From assembly GCA_964598845.1 (NCBI GenBank), contig CAZRDM010000005.1, positions 32,765 to 96,764 on the forward strand: 64,000 nt of DNA. Reading direction: 5' to 3'. This DNA comes from an uncultured Candidatus Bathyarchaeia archaeon. Its GTDB lineage: Archaea > Thermoproteota > Bathyarchaeia > 40CM-2-53-6. This document shows, one piece after another, positions 3,320 through 49,281 of the stretch. The notes beneath the pieces were generated by a model that saw only the letters and a list, made by a program, of their open reading frames with translations, made no database searches and was not told the DNA's origin. The position numbers and the translations under genes are program-made. Position 1 is the stretch's first letter; the number at the start of each line of letters is the position of its first letter.

Positions 3320-4288
3320 ATGGCTACGCCCATACTGTCGGTAGAAGGGTTGAGAACATACTTCTACCTGAGCGGCGGCGTCGTAAAAGCGGTAGACGGA
3401 GTAAGCTTCACCGTAAACGAGGACGAAGTCTTCTGCCTCGTCGGCGAGACAGGGTGCGGAAAAAGCGTCACCTCACTCTCTATAATGAGATTGATTGACC
3501 ATCCGGGCATAATCGAAGAAGGAAGAGTCCTGTACAAGGGAAAAGACCTGCTCAAACTACCTGAAAGTGAGATGCGAAAAATCCGCGGAAGAGAAATCGC
3601 TATGGTATTTCAGAACCCCATGAGATCGCTGAACCCGGTCTTTACCATAGGCGATCAAATCGCCGAGGCTCCAATGACCCACTTCGATGTTCCAAGCCGC
3701 GACGCCTGGAAAACAGCAATCGAGTTCATTGCAAAAGTTAAGATGCCTGATCCTGAAGTGCGGGCAAAATCCTATCCTCACGTACTTAGTGGGGGGATGA
3801 GACAGAGATCAATGATTGCCATGATGATCTCCTGTGAACCGTCTCTCCTGATAGCGGATGAACCCACAACCGCCGTTGACGTTACCATTCAAGCTCAACT
3901 CATGGATCTGCTGTTGGAGATCAAGAAAAGACGCAAGATGTCTATGATGCTCATAACTCACAACTTCGGCTTAGTGGCTGAAACAGGTGACAGAGCGGCA
4001 GTAATGTATTGCGGAAAAGTTGTCGAAATCGGATCGGTTGCGGACATCTTCCGCGAACCTCTGCACCCGTACACTCAAGGATTGATGAACTGCCTTCCGA
4101 TAGGGACTCAACGCAAGAAGGAGCTGGAGGTCATTCCGGGGACTCTTGCAAGTCCTGTCAATCCTCCTGAAGGCTGTAGGTTTGCTCCACGATGCGGATT
4201 CGCGATGGGCGAGTGCAAGCTCCATGAACCGCCTCTTACTGCCGGTGGAAAGGACCGCTTTGTGGCATGTCATCTTTACAGGAGCTAG
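3320..4288 (+). CDS. ABC transporter ATP-binding protein (OppD/DppD-like)
   Basis: Walker A GETGCGKS, signature LSGGMRQR, and a C-terminal oligopeptide-ABC extension with Cys motif. Confidence 0.9.
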   Translation: MATPILSVEGLRTYFYLSGGVVKAVDGVSFTVNEDEVFCLVGETGCGKSVTSLSIMRLIDHPGIIEEGRVLYKGKDLLKLPESEMRKIRGREIAMVFQNPMRSLNPVFTIGDQIAEAPMTHFDVPSRDAWKTAIEFIAKVKMPDPEVRAKSYPHVLSGGMRQRSMIAMMISCEPSLLIADEPTTAVDVTIQAQLMDLLLEIKKRRKMSMMLITHNFGLVAETGDRAAVMYCGKVVEIGSVADIFREPLHPYTQGLMNCLPIGTQRKKELEVIPGTLASPVNPPEGCRFAPRCGFAMGECKLHEPPLTAGGKDRFVACHLYRS

Positions 4289-4291
4289 ACC

Positions 4292-5365
4292 TTGGAAGAA
4301 GCTCTACTGAGGGTTGAAGAACTCACAAAGTACTTCCCTGTCAAGAGGGGATTTCTCGGGGAAATCGCCCACGTGCACGCAGTAGATGGTGTAAGCCTTC
4401 ACGTAACCAAGGGGGAAACATTAGCTGTTGTTGGTGAATCGGGATCTGGGAAGACCACTCTCGGATTGATGGTCCTGAGACTTGTCAAGCCTACTTCAGG
4501 TAAGATATACTTCAACGGTACCGAAACTGCAGGAATGAGTGAGCGGCATTTCAAGAAGCTTAGGAGACGGATGGGAATAGTCTTTCAGGATCCATCCGCA
4601 TCACTGAATCCACGAATGACCATCAAACAAACATTGACGAGGCCGCTCGTTCTTCATGGCATCAAGAATGAGAGCGAGATCGACACCAGAATCACAGATA
4701 TTTTAGAAAAGGTTGGGCTTGGAAAGGAACACTCTGATAGGTATCCTCACGAGATCAGCGGCGGACAGCAACAGAGAGTAGCCGCCGCTCGAGCCATAAT
4801 TCTTAATCCAGAGTTAGTTATCCTAGATGAACCAACTTCTTCGTTGGATGTTTCTGTTCAAGCCCAAATACTGAACCTGTTGTTTAGACTTCAAAGTGAA
4901 TTCAACCTGACCTACCTACTTATCTCACATGACATTGTGATGGTCAGGCACGTAAGCGATAGGATCGCGGTAATGTACTTGGGCAAGGTCGTTGAAGTCG
5001 CAGATACGGACGAATTGTTCAGCAACACTGTTCATCCATACACAGCCGCACTACTGTCGGCTGTCCCGATACCTCGACCAAAAAGTGAGGGCGCCAAGCG
5101 CGTTATCGTAGGCGGTGAGCCTCCAAGTCCGATCAACCCTCCAAAGGGATGCAGATTTCACCCCAGGTGCACCTACGCTGTCGAGAAGTGTCGGATCGAA
5201 GAGCCGAGACTTTCGCTAATGGGGAATGGTCATCTTGCAGCTTGCCATCGAGCTGAAGAGATTGACGTTTCAAGTTACGCGAAGGAACTCTGGAGAATCA
5301 TTGAGGAGAAAGGCTCCCATGAGTCACGAAGAGAGCTTATCGAACGGGCTGAAGGCAAAGTATAA
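4292..5365 (+). CDS. ABC transporter ATP-binding protein (OppF/DppF-like)
   Basis: Walker A GESGSGKTT, signature ISGGQQQRVA, and a C-terminal CRFHPRC motif. Confidence 0.9.
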   Translation: MEEALLRVEELTKYFPVKRGFLGEIAHVHAVDGVSLHVTKGETLAVVGESGSGKTTLGLMVLRLVKPTSGKIYFNGTETAGMSERHFKKLRRRMGIVFQDPSASLNPRMTIKQTLTRPLVLHGIKNESEIDTRITDILEKVGLGKEHSDRYPHEISGGQQQRVAAARAIILNPELVILDEPTSSLDVSVQAQILNLLFRLQSEFNLTYLLISHDIVMVRHVSDRIAVMYLGKVVEVADTDELFSNTVHPYTAALLSAVPIPRPKSEGAKRVIVGGEPPSPINPPKGCRFHPRCTYAVEKCRIEEPRLSLMGNGHLAACHRAEEIDVSSYAKELWRIIEEKGSHESRRELIERAEGKV

Positions 5366-15276: not shown

Positions 15277-16722
15277 TTGAAGGATGTTCTTCCAACGTGT
15301 CAGGTGCTAGGACGGAATGAGATGGATGTTCTCCATGATGCTTCGCTCGAGATTCTCGAAAATGTCGGAATGGTAGTTCTGGAGAAAACCTGTTACAAAC
15401 TGCTTGAGGACGCTGGGGCAATCGTTGATCCAGCTAGCAAGCTCGTGAAGATCTCAAGACATCTTGTTGAGGAGGGTCTCAAGAAAACACCCAAAGGAGG
15501 AAGAGTCCACTTTGCGAGAATTTCAAAGTACGATTTCAAGACCGGGGAAGGTCAACTTTTCTTCAGAGGCGGTACCCTCGGACCCCATCTAATTGACATA
15601 GAAACCGGTGCTCATAGGTCGGCTACTCGAAAGGATTTCGTGAACCTTGTGAAATTCTTGGACGCTATGGACACTATTCATGCTGTGATGTTTCCTTGTG
15701 CCCCTTGCGATGTTTCGGCGGAATCCTTCTCTCAGCAGCTAGCTACGCTGACCTTGGAAAACACAGCTAAGCCGATAGGTGTTGTAGCTCACGGGAAGAA
15801 GAGCGCTAGAGACATCATTAGACTATCTACGGCCGTTGCAGGAGGAATCGAAGAACTCACCAAACGACCAATACTACAGCTTCTTTGCGAACCTCTTAGC
15901 CCGTTGAAGTTGGACGAGAGGCAAGGCGAGAATCTAGTAGAATTTGCCGAGCACAAGCTCCCAGTTGAAATAGCGAGTATGCCTGCTATGTGTTCTACTG
16001 CTCCGGCAACTATGGCGGCAACAATAGCTCAGCTCAACGCTGAACATCTATGCATGATCCTAATTGCTCAGCTTATCAACCCGGGAACTCCAATCTCGCT
16101 CAATGCATGCGCGGGTTGTATGGATCCAAGGACTGGGACGAACACTTACGGAGCTGTCGAGAGGGTGTTGCTTAACGCGGCGGTCGTGCAGCTTTGGCGG
16201 TCCTACTATGGGATAGAGACCTACGCTAGCGCTGCGCTCACGGACTCAAAGTTACCTGATGAGCAAGCTGGCTATGAGAGAATGATGAACATGCTATTGC
16301 CGGCTCTGGCGGGACTCGACATGATTACAACGCTCGGCTACCTGGAATCATACCTGACCATCAGCTTTGAGCAGATACTGATCGATAATGAGATCGCGAG
16401 CATGATCCTAAGAATACTGAGGGGAGTTGAAATCAACGAGGAAACCCTAGCCTTGGACGTGATTGAAAAGGTTGGGCCTGGACAACACTTCTTGGCTGAG
16501 AAACACACCCTGCGACACGTGAACGAACTGCTACTGCCCAAACTCGCCAACAGAAGTACGAGAGCAGATTGGGAGCGCGGCGGAGGAAGAGACATAGCAG
16601 GCCTTGCTAGGGAGAGAGCAAGACTGACCCTAGAAGCTCACGAGCCGGAGCCGCTCGAGAAAGATATCCGCAAGAAATTGCATGAAATGTCAAGAGAAAT
16701 GGCTATCGATTCCCGCGATTGA
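15277..16722 (+). CDS. MttB-superfamily methyltransferase (trimethylamine/glycine-betaine methyltransferase family, non-pyrrolysine type)
   Basis: 481 aa with the N-terminal LHDASLEILENVGMVV signature of the MttB family and no in-frame TAG. It is a paralog of the 24850 gene. Confidence 0.75.
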   Translation: MKDVLPTCQVLGRNEMDVLHDASLEILENVGMVVLEKTCYKLLEDAGAIVDPASKLVKISRHLVEEGLKKTPKGGRVHFARISKYDFKTGEGQLFFRGGTLGPHLIDIETGAHRSATRKDFVNLVKFLDAMDTIHAVMFPCAPCDVSAESFSQQLATLTLENTAKPIGVVAHGKKSARDIIRLSTAVAGGIEELTKRPILQLLCEPLSPLKLDERQGENLVEFAEHKLPVEIASMPAMCSTAPATMAATIAQLNAEHLCMILIAQLINPGTPISLNACAGCMDPRTGTNTYGAVERVLLNAAVVQLWRSYYGIETYASAALTDSKLPDEQAGYERMMNMLLPALAGLDMITTLGYLESYLTISFEQILIDNEIASMILRILRGVEINEETLALDVIEKVGPGQHFLAEKHTLRHVNELLLPKLANRSTRADWERGGGRDIAGLARERARLTLEAHEPEPLEKDIRKKLHEMSREMAIDSRD

Positions 16723-24849: not shown

Positions 24850-26319
24850 GTGAAGATGAAATTTGAATTTCTAGACGCCAGCCAAACCGAAGCCATTCAC
24901 GAAGCGAGCCTCGACATACTAGAGAATACGGGGGCAACATTTCTCTCACAACAAGCGCAGAGAATCCTAGCGGAAGCTGGAGCACGCGCAAACGGGAAAA
25001 CAGGGAGCGTGAGGATCCCACGAAGCCTAGTCAAAGAAACCCTCCGACACTGCCCATCCGAGTTCCGGCTTTACGCTCGGAATCCAAAATACAATCTGCA
25101 GATAGGCGGAAAAAACCAGTACATGACATGTGGCGGGGAGTATCCGTACATCCTTGACCTAGAAACAGGAACGCGTCGACCTGCCCTTTCCAGCGATCTA
25201 GTGCCCATAATCAAGGTCACCGATGCCTTGGAGAACATCAGCGTCGGTGGCAGCTACATGATAGCTCCAAGCGACATGCCGGAAGAGTATCGTCATATAG
25301 AGAGAGGCGTCCTGCACTACAAGTACACGTCCAAGACGACTCATTGGGACACGGAAGGATACGTGGGCCAGAGTGGAGAGCTTGGCGCAACCCACAACCT
25401 TCAACTGGCCGCTGTCATCTCAGGAGGGATGCAACAGCTTTCCAAGAAACCCATAGGAACTGCGAGCATCTGTCCATCAAGCCCTATGATCTACGACATC
25501 GGCTTGACCGATGACATCATCGAATATGCAAGACACAGAGTTCCAATCTTGATTGAACCCATGGACAATACCGGAGCAACCTCGCCAAACACCATCGCGG
25601 GGTCGCTTGTTCAGACAAATGCTACCGTGCTCGCTGGACTAACCCTTGTTCAGCTCATCAACCCCGGCAGCCCAGTTGTCTATGGGAGCATTCCGGTCAG
25701 CCTTGACCTGCGTACAGGGATACCAGCCGCGGGTTGCCCGGAAGCAGCCTTGCGATGCGCAGGAGGGGCGGAGATGGCTAGGTACTATGGTCTCCCTTCA
25801 GCCATGTCAGGCGGGGTGACCGATTCGAAGCTTCCGGATGTGCAAGCTGGTTTCGAGAGCGCATTGACAATGCTCACGACTGTCCTCGCAGGAGCCAATT
25901 GGATTCGCGTTGTCGCAGGGGCTCTCGAGTATCACTTTACCGCATCATTCGAGATGCTTGTAATTCACGACGAGTTATTTGGAATGGCAATGCGAATAGC
26001 GCGTGGGATAGAAGTCAACGAGGATACCTTAGCAGTATCACTCATCAAGAAGATAGCGCCTCTTCGAGGGCATTACATGGGAGAGAAGCATACACTTGAC
26101 CACCTCAGCGCCGAGAGGTATCTGTCAAAACTCAGCGACAAGCGAACCCGCGGCGACTGGGAAAAAGCTGGATCAAGACATTTAGCTGACGTAGCCAAGG
26201 AGCGTGTCAAGGTGATTCTTGCAGTGCACCAACCCGAACCTTTGCCGAAAGATATCGAGAAAGAACTCGATGCAAGAAAAGCGGAAATAGAGAAACGATT
26301 ATCCAGAGAACGTCTTTGA
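24850..26319 (+). CDS. MttB-superfamily methyltransferase (non-pyrrolysine type)
   Basis: 489 aa with the N-terminal IHEASLDILENTG signature. It sits immediately downstream of the mtrH-like gene. Confidence 0.8.
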   Translation: MKMKFEFLDASQTEAIHEASLDILENTGATFLSQQAQRILAEAGARANGKTGSVRIPRSLVKETLRHCPSEFRLYARNPKYNLQIGGKNQYMTCGGEYPYILDLETGTRRPALSSDLVPIIKVTDALENISVGGSYMIAPSDMPEEYRHIERGVLHYKYTSKTTHWDTEGYVGQSGELGATHNLQLAAVISGGMQQLSKKPIGTASICPSSPMIYDIGLTDDIIEYARHRVPILIEPMDNTGATSPNTIAGSLVQTNATVLAGLTLVQLINPGSPVVYGSIPVSLDLRTGIPAAGCPEAALRCAGGAEMARYYGLPSAMSGGVTDSKLPDVQAGFESALTMLTTVLAGANWIRVVAGALEYHFTASFEMLVIHDELFGMAMRIARGIEVNEDTLAVSLIKKIAPLRGHYMGEKHTLDHLSAERYLSKLSDKRTRGDWEKAGSRHLADVAKERVKVILAVHQPEPLPKDIEKELDARKAEIEKRLSRERL

Positions 26320-47536: not shown

Positions 47537-47707
47537 TCATTTCCGGACTTTGTCGAATCTGGCTGCGACATCGTCAAAGTTGACGACTTTCCACCATTCG
47601 TCGACGTATGCACCGCGGTCATCCTTGTGTTGCAATTCATGATCGCGAGCAGGCCGACCAAGATTACTTTCGCTCTTCAGTAGTACCGCGTGACACGCTA
47701 TTCGTTT
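47537..47707 (-). pseudogene. remnant of a superoxide dismutase 3' end (degraded duplicate of the C-terminus of the sod gene at 48673..49281)
   Basis: Minus-strand translation gives ...RDHELQHKDDRGAYVDEWWKVVNFDDVAARFDKVRK*, versus the SOD C-terminus ...WEHAYYLTYKNDRAKYVDEWWKVANWDDVAARFEKAKK*. Nucleotide identity is about 75% over about 60 nt. There is no start codon, and the metal-ligand motif is degraded. Confidence 0.55.
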
Positions 47708-47772
47708 TCACGCGTCTGCTTCGAAAACTAAAACGACGTAGAGCGCTGTTTCAGCAGGTCGCCTAATGGACA

Positions 47773-48645
47773 ATGTGGCCATCGCAAGTCAACACAGGCA
47801 GGCTTCAGATTCAACCAGACTTGAGTCAGGACGACACAGGGGTTCTCGTCACTCCTCTAGAGAAACGTCTCCAAGCATACGACCGATTTCAGGAATTACT
47901 TGCCCGAGGCAAATCGACACATGAAATGGTGTGCACAATTTCGAAACGCTTCGGAGTCAGCCAAAGCACTGTCTATGCTTGGACAAAGGGCAGGTCGCCT
48001 TTCGGAAAGAGATGCGGAAGAATCACCCACGCTGAAGAACTGTTCTACGTCATAGGCGCTCTGCTAGGTGATGGATGCATCTACCTCTGGAGGAATCAAT
48101 ACTACGTCTGGCTCCTCGGCGAGAGAGAATTCTGCCTGAAGTATGCAGAGAAGATAGCTTGGTGTACGAGCAAAACAAAGGCCAAAACATATACATATCG
48201 AGGTAGAAACGTTTGGTTTGTCAAGTTTCAGAACGCCGAACTTTACTTTCTAATGAGGCGAGTACGTCAAGATTTCAACGTCCTTTCGAACTTGATTAGA
48301 CGCGGAGATCGTTTGGCCAATTCTTTACAGCTCATAGAAGGGTTCTTTGACGCCGAGGGATGTGTTAAGGTGATCAAGGAGAAAGTCAGAAGGACTCCTA
48401 AGATAAATCTCGATTTCAGTAACACCGACCTCAACCTCCTTGAGCTCGTTAGAAGAGAGTTGAAGTATGCACTCGGTATAGAAGGGCGGTTTACTTCTCA
48501 CAGAGATTTGAAGTCGAATAGGAAGGTGGCGTACCATCTACGAATATACCGGAAGGATGCTATTGGGAAATTTCTGTCAAACGTGAGCACGATAAAGCTG
48601 AAGCCCGAAAAAGTGCACTATGTGGAAAACTGGCTAAGAAAATAA
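47773..48645 (+). CDS. LAGLIDADG-family homing endonuclease-like protein with N-terminal HTH
   Basis: Two LAGLIDADG motifs (YVIGALLGDGCIY and IEGFFDAEGCV) plus an N-terminal HTH (ISKRFGVSQSTVYAWTKG); free-standing. Confidence 0.8.
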   Translation: MWPSQVNTGRLQIQPDLSQDDTGVLVTPLEKRLQAYDRFQELLARGKSTHEMVCTISKRFGVSQSTVYAWTKGRSPFGKRCGRITHAEELFYVIGALLGDGCIYLWRNQYYVWLLGEREFCLKYAEKIAWCTSKTKAKTYTYRGRNVWFVKFQNAELYFLMRRVRQDFNVLSNLIRRGDRLANSLQLIEGFFDAEGCVKVIKEKVRRTPKINLDFSNTDLNLLELVRRELKYALGIEGRFTSHRDLKSNRKVAYHLRIYRKDAIGKFLSNVSTIKLKPEKVHYVENWLRK

Positions 48646-48672
48646 AAAAAGGAAGGGCAGGAAGGAAAGAAC
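48646..48672 (-). terminator. T-rich tract immediately 3' of sod (archaeal oligo-T terminator candidate)
   Basis: On the sod coding strand, the stop is followed by cctttttttatttt (plus-strand aataaaaaaagg). Confidence 0.3.
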
Positions 48673-49281
48673 TCACTTTTTCGCTTTCTCGAATCTCGCC
48701 GCTACGTCGTCCCAGTTTGCGACCTTCCACCACTCGTCAACGTATTTTGCCCTGTCGTTCTTATAGGTCAAATAGTATGCATGCTCCCAAACGTCGAGTC
48801 CGAGGAGTATTGGGAGTTGGGCGAGGTGCATGAAGTTCTGCTTTTCGATTTGTGTGAGGACGAGTTGGTCGGTGGTGTTGTCGTAGAGTAGGAGTGCCCA
48901 CCCTGAGCCTTCAACAGTCTTCGCTGCGTCCGAGAATTGCTGTTTGAACTTATCAAAGCCGATAAAATCCTGCCTTATCCTATCTGCTATGGCCCCGCCC
49001 GGGGTCCCTCCTCCCTTACCGGGTGGCGCCATGTTGGGCCAGAAGATGCTGTGAAGTACGTGTCCGTCCAAGTTGAAACTGAAGTCTCTCAGTACGGCCC
49101 TCATGTCGACCTGCAGTTCTCCTTTCCTAGCTTTGTCTAGTTTTTCGAGAGCAGCGTTTGCTCCGGTAACGTATGCAGCATGATGCTTGTCGTGGTGGAG
49201 TCGCATGATCTCCTCGGAGATTACTGGTTCAAGTGCATTGTAGTTGTAAGGCAAATCCGGAAGAGTATATTTCTGCGGCAT
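48673..49281 (-). CDS. sod: Fe/Mn superoxide dismutase
   Basis: 202 aa with LPDLPY, HHxKHH, and DVWEHAYY metal-ligand motifs. Confidence 0.9.
   Translation of the reverse strand: MPQKYTLPDLPYNYNALEPVISEEIMRLHHDKHHAAYVTGANAALEKLDKARKGELQVDMRAVLRDFSFNLDGHVLHSIFWPNMAPPGKGGGTPGGAIADRIRQDFIGFDKFKQQFSDAAKTVEGSGWALLLYDNTTDQLVLTQIEKQNFMHLAQLPILLGLDVWEHAYYLTYKNDRAKYVDEWWKVANWDDVAARFEKAKK

Follow-up and report, generated by a model that had tools for sequence, protein, structure and literature searches.

Free-standing homing endonuclease genes are said to be generally limited to intergenic sites unless they reside within an intron or intein (PMC13619312). Those of T4-like phages (mobE and the Seg proteins) spread by intronless homing (PMC2790892, PMC2988022). 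In fungal mitochondria, mobile open reading frames (mobile ORFs, or mORFs) have given rise to gene hybrids, described for atp6 of Allomyces macrogynus and for atp6, atp9, cox2 and nad3 of Glomus, together with C-terminal duplications of cob and atp6 in Endoconidiophora (PMC3630166, PMC6279837, PMC7487136). In such hybrids an endonuclease ORF (LAGLIDADG or GIY-YIG) lies inside the 3′ part of a gene along with a foreign replacement C-terminus, and the native C-terminus persists downstream as a duplicate that is not expressed. Here we describe a comparable arrangement at the superoxide dismutase gene (sod) of an uncultured Candidatus Bathyarchaeia archaeon. The DNA analysed, hereafter the window, is a stretch of 64,000 nt (GenBank assembly GCA_964598845.1, contig CAZRDM010000005.1, positions 32,765 to 96,764), in which a free-standing LAGLIDADG endonuclease gene lies between an intact sod and a remnant of a second sod 3′ end. 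Based on comparison with homologous loci (referred to by number, e.g. L006), we consider it probable that the locus contains a homing cassette that invaded a coding gene by bringing a replacement 3′ end with it.

An endonuclease gene between two sod 3′ ends

The sod gene of the window (minus strand, 48673–49281) encodes, by ORF reading, a 202-residue Fe/Mn superoxide dismutase (SOD) in which both Pfam domains are intact (Sod_Fe_N, E=1e-31; Sod_Fe_C, E=2e-34) and the HHDKHH, H..H and DVWEH motifs are all kept, the DVWEH metal-ligand motif occupying residues 163–167. The endonuclease ORF on the plus strand is convergent to sod, with 27 nt separating the two stop codons. Beyond its start codon lie ∼137 nt of non-coding DNA, followed by a sod 3′ remnant that reads LQHKDDRGAYVDEWWKVVNFDDVAARFDKVRK and a stop codon on the minus strand (Table 1). 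The remnant matches SOD residues 171–202 with the stop codon in register, at 69% amino acid identity (tblastn E=4e-11 against the whole window).

An initial annotation of the window had located these three features, and ORF prediction, Pfam and tblastn found all of them in the same places. The homology that it had claimed between the remnant and the sod 3′ end was borne out over 32 codons; its nucleotide identity of ∼75% was a little high, the value being 69% when the final 99 nt were compared, ungapped, with those of the sod in the window, where differences at codon positions 1, 2 and 3 numbered 6, 7 and 18, respectively. On the 5′ side of the remnant the frame is degenerate (..RPARDHE..), with the upstream motif degraded to RDHE and without a start codon, as had been noted, and it also contains an in-frame stop. 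The remnant is not a chance match, as many independent loci have such a stub in the corresponding place (see below). No intron or intein home was found for the endonuclease gene: the sod ORF is uninterrupted, the endonuclease gene lies past the sod stop codon on the opposite strand, and no Rfam intron family was matched in the window.

Linkage of the endonuclease family to sod

Homologues with 64–72% identity to the window endonuclease were found convergent to sod in other Bathyarchaeia contigs, where the genes on the far side varied. At 46–48% identity, homologues were again convergent to sod, overlapping it by 4–68 nt, on contigs with proteins labelled by NCBI as DPANN and, in one case, as Paceibacterota. 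Every flank differed among the DPANN-type contigs, and their sods had as little as 33% identity to the window SOD. Across homologues at 42–75% identity, all were convergent with the sod 3′ end, with a gap of ∼10–40 nt or an overlap of 4–68 nt; the 27-nt gap of the window compares with the overlap in the DPANN loci L092, L093 and L095. Transcription of the endonuclease gene may thus extend, in antisense, into the 3′ end of sod.

Metagenomes scanned with the family alignment gave 80 loci, with sod convergent and directly downstream in 76; the other four contigs stop right past the endonuclease gene. The combined set of 86 loci represents 68 distinct lineages at 97% nucleotide identity (Bathyarchaeia, DPANN-labelled records and one record labelled as a candidate phyla radiation (CPR) bacterium). 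At the level of 50%-identity clusters, 37 representatives were recovered at E≤1e-30 and 336 at E≤1e-10. A single locus has the endonuclease gene on the same strand as sod: in L019 (JACPTA010000102.1, a Thaumarchaeota metagenome-assembled genome (MAG); 3405–4074) a frameshifted copy without the helix-turn-helix (HTH) region lies directly downstream of sod, and no stub was detected there. In the literature searched, coverage of which was incomplete, no earlier account was found of a sod-associated homing endonuclease or of this family, nor of free-standing LAGLIDADG genes in DPANN archaea or Bathyarchaeota.

Among endonuclease-bearing loci, the intact sod end, the spacer, the endonuclease gene and its upstream region form one collinear homologous block, with the stub outside it. 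This arrangement does not support the reverse order of events, with the remnant as the newcomer, which the initial annotation had considered equally possible.

Stubs of the sod 3′ end across the family

Stubs were sought by comparing the SOD C-terminus of each locus with the DNA upstream of its own endonuclease gene (tblastn, E<1e-3, with E-values referring to a search space of at most 700–900 nt). A stub was found in 19 of the 62 assessable lineages, so that in these, as in the window, the endonuclease ORF lies between an intact gene and a non-functional duplicate of its 3′ end. All of these matches were on the sod-sense strand, 8–225 nt upstream of the endonuclease gene, and started within −6 to +24 residues of the His of D-x-W-E-H, with DVWEH included in none of them. 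Weak matches (E>0.01) were spread over both strands and served as an internal control. In L097 and L104 the cassette-borne end and the stub both begin at A-Y-Y, and therefore the insertion is a clean one, directly 3′ of the His codon. In DPANN-type lineages most cassette ends show an unusual ..WNR.., and the stubs retain the canonical ..YQNRR...

The first tblastn screen returned no stub in L006, L010, L011 or L015. A short one (..DVDSRFVKAKH and a stop) was subsequently seen in L006 by near-isogenic alignment and manual translation, and degenerate stubs are probable in L011/L107 and L105; the lack of a match at E<1e-3 is therefore not equivalent to absence.

An ordinary intergenic endonuclease of the T4-like kind, which cuts the nearby sod, generates foreign 3′ ends by co-conversion and leaves stubs as rare by-products of imprecise repair with no role in mobility, would account for the 43 of 62 lineages in which no stub was detectable. 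Long syntenic flanks would also be enough for repair between conspecific genomes, and T4 endonucleases are well known to co-convert flanking markers (PMC2790892). We nevertheless consider this explanation unlikely in view of the constancy of the stubs, which in at least 19 lineages occupy one position and begin just past DVWEH, the precise duplication from AYY onward in L097 and L104, and the same stub architecture on a metallo-beta-lactamase (MBL)-fold gene (described below). Furthermore, outer flanks are unrelated between lineages, and cross-lineage transfer would need a built-in homology arm.

Chimeric sod genes

To compare the parts of the gene separately, SODs were split after DVWEH. All 14 endonuclease-bearing Bathyarchaeia alleles have (A/G)K-YVD-E-WW-K at the 3′ end, and the endonuclease-free alleles (L012, L016, L046 and L049–L053), together with the stubs of L097, L100 and L104, have (G/A)(A/T)-(Y/F)VD-K-(W/L)W-(D/E/N). 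The 5′ parts of L102 and L104 are 92–95% identical to endonuclease-free clade B and 65–70% identical to clade A; their 3′ parts are 80–91% identical to clade-A cassette ends and 63–71% identical to clade-B ends, and their stubs are of the clade-B native type. Two pairs with and without the endonuclease gene gave the same picture, with identities of 96% (5′ part) and 69% (3′ part) for L011 and L016, and of 98% and 74% for L006 and L014. The 5′ part of the window sod is closest to the endonuclease-free L012 (89%) and its 3′ part to the endonuclease-bearing L116 (94%) and L097 (91%). Based on sliding nucleotide identity, the switch is located at the DVWEH codons. Sod genes next to the endonuclease are chimeric, with a 5′ part that follows the host clade and a 3′ end that follows the endonuclease; the intact 3′ end is foreign to its 5′ part, a point that the initial annotation had proposed to check. 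A foreign attached end together with a native displaced end was found in L097, L100, L104, L102 and L072.

At the DVWEH|AYY junction itself, fixed nucleotide differences were considered as a basis of immunity, and none was found between alleles with and without the endonuclease gene. In the Bathyarchaeia, the best candidates for discrimination between the two allele types are codons 179, 183 and 186 around the palindromic TACGTCGAC, plus R196 (CGN versus AGR). The change from K..E/D to E..K at residues 183 and 186 (i, i+3) is read as a compensated charge swap.

Empty sites and decayed copies

The comparison of related loci yielded empty sites, as the initial annotation had proposed to look for. 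The flanks of L006 and L014 match at 97% identity, along 4 kb to one side and, in two blocks, along 4.2 kb to the other; between these flanks, 1,076 bp of L006 (4885–5960, comprising the sod end, spacer, endonuclease gene and upstream region) replace 9 bp of L014. A second presence/absence polymorphism at a fixed site is provided by L072 and its empty counterparts L075, L076 and L071. The sod end of L014 (JBEKFP010000001.1, ∼4500–4606) is itself a hybrid, with the cassette-type KYVDEWWKVVNW up to ..VVNW followed by the native-type SDVDSRFGKAKH. This looks like the scar of a cassette lost by recombination between the attached end and the stub; alternatively, L014 may represent the recipient state.

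Decay was also evident. In L013 a remnant of ∼32 C-terminal endonuclease codons persists beside a cassette-type sod end, the L019 copy is frameshifted and without its HTH, and that of L116 is 5′-truncated. The endonuclease gene is thus absent in close relatives and decayed in others, rather than fixed across the clade.

These comparisons also bear on whether the remnant is the relic of a tandem duplication into which an endonuclease gene later landed, or whether sod is transferred jointly with the endonuclease gene as a two-gene island. Slippage or unequal recombination could produce a direct repeat of a gene end, and sod is prone to horizontal transfer, with very diverse sods carrying the element. 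However, wherever a sod stub was seen in the loci examined, an endonuclease gene or a remnant of one separated the two copies, the foreign sequence in sod is confined to the 3′ ends, with 5′ parts that go with the host clade, and the difference between L006 and L014 is limited to the sod end and endonuclease gene. In addition, stubs and intact ends have diverged (69–77% nucleotide identity), and the stubs of L072, L097 and L104 are nearer to native relatives. We consider either version extremely improbable.

The endonuclease and its upstream region

The window endonuclease exceeds the Pfam cut-off for LAGLIDADG_3 (40.6 bits against 22.5; E=3e-10); this model covers domain 2 only, with domain 1 recognized by motif and fold. 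Both motifs are present, LLGDGC (D100) and FFDAEGC (E195), and a family alignment of 23 sequences from records labelled Bathyarchaeia, DPANN and CPR shows no variation in G99-D100-G101 or A194-E195-G196. D100 and E195 constitute the same Asp/Glu pair as in I-DmoI. In an AlphaFold2 model (pLDDT 86, pTM 0.80), a disordered tail (1–25) and a three-helix bundle (29–71) precede two alpha/beta LAGLIDADG domains with the double-domain alpha-beta-beta-alpha-beta-beta-alpha fold. The best fold match in the Protein Data Bank (PDB) was I-DmoI (Foldseek E=7e-9), followed by I-Tsp061I and PI-PfuI (E about 1e-8); a PDB sequence search with the family profile returned marginal matches only (I-Tsp061I, E=0.15). 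The double-motif, free-standing nature of the gene was thereby upheld; the N-terminal HTH is supported only by the three-helix bundle of the model and by sub-threshold matches to HTH_23 and HTH_28. We infer site-specific cleavage activity for this enzyme.

Estimates of dN/dS against homologues were 0.14–0.24 (the L097 and L104 pairs were excluded from this set); the endonuclease looks intact and is under purifying selection. Homologues begin with MDN(V/I)A..., and the matching ATG of the window (47766) is out of frame owing to a 1-nt indel relative to the homologues; the window ORF starts instead at ATG 47773, which affects only the first ∼10 residues, a variable segment that is disordered in the model. 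The contrast in base composition between the endonuclease gene (46% GC) and the window (51%) was too weak to be used.

The non-coding block of ∼130 bp upstream of the gene is better conserved than parts of the endonuclease ORF. Within it ATTACTTTC is invariant in eight loci (the window, L006 at 4885–5000, L010, L011, L015, L101, L102 and L105) and GATTACTTTCGC in the first five of these; in the cassettes of L097, L100 and L104 merely ∼60 nt occupy its position. No ORF was found on either strand of the block, and a structured RNA was unconvincing (RNAalifold consensus −3.6 kcal/mol with almost no covariation; no Rfam match). The block could be a promoter/leader or protein-binding DNA, possibly an operator for the HTH.

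An alternative is that the HTH-LAGLIDADG protein, or an antisense transcript, is a conserved regulator of sod maintained for a host function, with the stubs as incidental ancient relics. Linkage to sod wherever assessable (100%), the low dN/dS, the N-terminal HTH, the conserved upstream element and the potential for antisense effects of convergent or overlapping transcription units are all in keeping with such a role. The patchy distribution and decay of the endonuclease gene argue against a domesticated regulator: the gene is absent where sod 5′ parts are 96–98% identical (L014, L016) and decayed in L013, L019 and L116. Moreover, the catalytic Asp/Glu pair, which domesticated LAGLIDADG proteins such as WhiA have lost, is invariant, variation in sod 3′ ends goes with the endonuclease and not with the host, and the same architecture occurs on another host gene and with another endonuclease. 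We regard a regulator of this kind as quite unlikely.

Independent repeats of the design

In L072 the space between sod and a stub is occupied by an antisense ORF of 161 residues that has a LAGIIEGEGS motif; the stub reads KNDRPSYFHL, a stop, WNVVNWDDVEKRLEKARR and a further stop. The ORF had no Pfam match and no match in the PDB sequence search; it matched PHROG 5046 (E=2.5e-8), as did domain 2 of the window endonuclease, and its assignment to LAGLIDADG rests on the LAGIIEGEGS motif and this shared PHROG, which is itself labelled 'HNH endonuclease'. Relative to the syntenic empty sites L075, L076 and L071, L072 has gained 683 bp, and the final ∼59 nt of its sod are present twice. The two sod ends (4550–4609 and 5292–5351) differ at 14 of 60 nt, all of them synonymous, and the last 19 codons specify the same peptide; the cassette copy is fully recoded with respect to the resident copy. 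The stub is the nearer of the two to native L075 sequence (88% versus 82%). This element seems to represent a single-domain LAGLIDADG-like ORF, unrelated to the sod endonuclease family, in the same architecture.

A sister family, 30% identical to the window endonuclease across the HTH and both motifs, was found convergent to an MBL-fold gene in three different contexts, with a 6-nt overlap in L182 and L184. Stubs of the MBL-fold gene (the last ∼30 codons) are separated from the endonuclease gene, on its upstream side, by 28 and 67 nt (E=4e-10 and 5e-12; L182, 3168–3500; L184, 2299–2484) and begin right past the conserved PMH motif. Both insertion points, in sod and in the MBL-fold gene, follow a metal-ligand His codon, which may be a coincidence or may reflect a preference of the enzymes for catalytic-motif DNA.

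A model for the cassette and its movement

The segment from ∼47636 to 48780 is best explained as a cassette of ∼1.1 kb that comprises the sod end (Ala168 to stop), the spacer, the antisense endonuclease gene and an upstream control region (Table 1). Insertion of a cassette into the 3′ part of sod, with supply of a new end and displacement of the old one, had been proposed in the initial annotation, and the empty sites, the foreign 3′ end and the patchy endonuclease gene all support it.

Starting from the observed architecture, its recurrence, the sod chimerism, the presence/absence polymorphism, the decayed copies and the purifying selection on the endonuclease, we propose the following scheme, in which cleavage, the exact target, the basis of immunity and the use of the stub as a homology arm are inferred. 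The endonuclease would cut cassette-free sod within its conserved 3′ region, at some point from the DVWEH codons to approximately codon 190, and the break would be repaired from a cassette-bearing allele. The cassette would thereby be copied in directly 3′ of His167, and its new 3′ end would keep the gene whole. The resident 3′ end would be pushed downstream of the endonuclease gene, where it would go untranslated and would decay or become truncated. The recoded end (in Bathyarchaeia, K..E/D to E..K at 183/186, A179K and synonymous changes) presumably makes the carrier allele immune, and the displaced stub could be used as a portable downstream homology arm, with which the cassette would move between genomes with unrelated downstream genes. 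Gain would later be followed by decay, by loss through recombination between the two ends, and by re-invasion.

Re-invasion may have occurred in the window itself. Its stub begins with a native-like LQ.K.DRGAYVD, which is followed by EWWKVVNFDDVAARFDK. This latter part is 92% identical at the nucleotide level, over a 62-nt core, to the functional cassette-type sod end of L011 (as against 69% for the stub and the window's own end); it is 90% identical to the L015 end and only ∼77% identical to the L006/L010-type ends. Because the window stub is thus itself of cassette type (L011-like), the simplest reading would be that an L011-type cassette had already converted the allele when the present L116/L097-type cassette invaded it.

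Several observations weigh against the proposed homing cassette or call for additional steps. Displacement of a native end cannot be read from the window stub alone, which is of the E..K cassette type, and the proposal requires a further step there (re-invasion, or cassettes that differ in specificity); no near-isogenic endonuclease-free relative of the window genome was found. The 43 of 62 lineages without a stub at E<1e-3 imply that the stub is not needed for persistence, and its role as a homology arm is a putative one; many lineages have lost the stub. With no fixed difference at the junction, immunity must lie elsewhere (codons 179–196) or involve the HTH, which is conjecture. No relative was found in IMG/VR contigs, and hence no viral vector. 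Finally, a role beneficial to the host would also be consistent with the strict linkage to sod, the purifying selection and the conservation of the upstream non-coding element.

As a broader and tentative proposal, which is possible although we would not as yet favour it, these loci may belong to a large prokaryotic superfamily of 3′-end-replacement homing cassettes. In each lineage an antisense HTH-LAGLIDADG gene would be dedicated to one host gene (sod, the MBL-fold gene and perhaps others among the 336 representatives at E≤1e-10), with insertion right after a metal-ligand His codon, a recoded immune end, and a stub arm with which the cassette could pass from one phylum to another (Bathyarchaeia, DPANN, and possibly Thaumarchaeota and CPR bacteria) regardless of gene neighbourhood. 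No description of such a superfamily in prokaryotes was found in the literature searched.

Features of the window

Coordinates of the locus are collected in Table 1. It is neighboured by a class-III aminotransferase gene on one side and by nifU, sufS and sufBD genes on the other. The locus recurs, with identical gene products, in several public metagenome assemblies, and the closest named relatives are Bathyarchaeia MAGs.

Table 1. Features of the sod locus in the window and the evidence on which each is based.
Feature	Position	Strand	Evidence and remarks
sod 5′ body, codons 1–167, up to His167 of DVWEH; putative resident host-lineage part	48781..49281	-	Pfam Sod_Fe_N and Sod_Fe_C; closest to endonuclease-free L012 (89% amino acid identity)
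Putative cassette-borne replacement sod 3′ end, codons 168–202 and stop, AYYLTYKNDRAKYVDEWWKVANWDDVAARFEKAKK	48673..48780	-	Signature of endonuclease-bearing alleles; nucleotide identity switch at DVWEH
27-nt spacer between convergent stop codons, T-rich in the sod sense	48646..48672	.	Sequence; collinear with the cassette in BLAST to L010, L015, L006 and L011
Free-standing HTH-plus-double-LAGLIDADG homing endonuclease gene (predicted), 290 aa, antisense to sod	47773..48645	+	LAGLIDADG_3; D100/E195; AlphaFold2; I-DmoI fold; dN/dS; sod linkage
Conserved non-coding region 5′ of the endonuclease gene, presumed promoter/leader, putative distal cassette end	47636..47772	+	Alignments; homology stops at the stub
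Displaced sod 3′ remnant, equivalent to codons 171–202 and stop; degraded extension to ∼47650 (..RDHE..)	47537..47635	-	tblastn and translation; outside the block shared by endonuclease-bearing loci

Elsewhere in the window, two matches at the Rfam gathering level to PYLIS_3, the pyrrolysine insertion element of mttB, were found on the plus strand at 25816–25912 (43.1 bits) and 16237–16337 (39.4 bits). Two trimethylamine methyltransferase genes with pyrrolysine are thus probable in the window, and they suggest that this Bathyarchaeia-like genome is that of a methylotroph.

Significance

A spare gene end would constitute a third route for free-standing homing endonucleases into coding genes, used on a large scale in archaeal chromosomes and thus beyond fungal mitochondria. 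It would also explain the mosaic structure of sod, the 3′ ends of which track a selfish element and not the organism, a trap for single-gene phylogenies and for the assessment of MAGs. The loci supply natural presence/absence pairs for the cycle of gain, decay and loss of selfish genes in uncultured archaea, and dozens of diverged monomeric LAGLIDADG enzymes, for which the search for targets can be restricted to a short, highly conserved part of a known gene, as raw material for meganuclease engineering. Two testable ideas follow: that a compensated charge swap (K..E to E..K) recodes the target without harm to the protein, and that the displaced stub acts as a built-in homology arm.

Comparison with known systems

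Two LAGLIDADG domains and an HTH are combined in one free-standing protein in WhiA, as they are in the window endonuclease. In WhiA the HTH is C-terminal, the catalytic acidic residues have been lost and the gene is vertically conserved; in contrast, the window family has an N-terminal HTH, invariant D100 and E195, and a gene that is patchy and decaying. The archaeal enzymes I-DmoI and I-Tsp061I (PDB 2vs7 and 2dch) share the two-domain monomeric fold, the motif-1 Asp and the motif-2 Glu with the window enzyme (Foldseek E about 1e-8, target-normalised TM 0.64–0.70), at a sequence identity of merely ∼20–24%. They are encoded inside rRNA introns and depend on splicing, whereas the window enzyme is free-standing, carries the extra HTH and is accompanied by a replacement gene end instead.

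With the T4-like endonucleases the family has in common a free-standing gene beside its target gene and, presumably, mobility through break repair with co-conversion of flanks and protection of the carrier by sequence differences. The T4-like enzymes are, however, of the HNH or GIY-YIG type and intergenic, with no duplication of a target end, whereas the present cassette would enter coding sequence.

The closest parallel is with the mORF hybrids. As in these, an endonuclease ORF at the window locus is found within the 3′ part of a gene along with a foreign replacement end, and in its family the native end is left downstream as a duplicate that is presumably unexpressed. In both cases most of the divergence of the inserted end is at synonymous sites, the native end is like that of close relatives, and the pattern has been interpreted as horizontal transfer. 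The present family differs in that the host is an archaeal chromosome and not an organelle, in that the endonuclease gene runs antisense to the host gene and has an upstream region of its own (mORFs have the same orientation as their host gene and are often in phase with it), and in the N-terminal HTH of the enzyme. Furthermore, one enzyme family is associated here with one host gene over phylum-level distances and 68 lineages, with a sister family on another gene. Based on this comparison, the arrangement is best explained as a prokaryotic counterpart of the mobile-ORF hybrids of fungal mitochondria.

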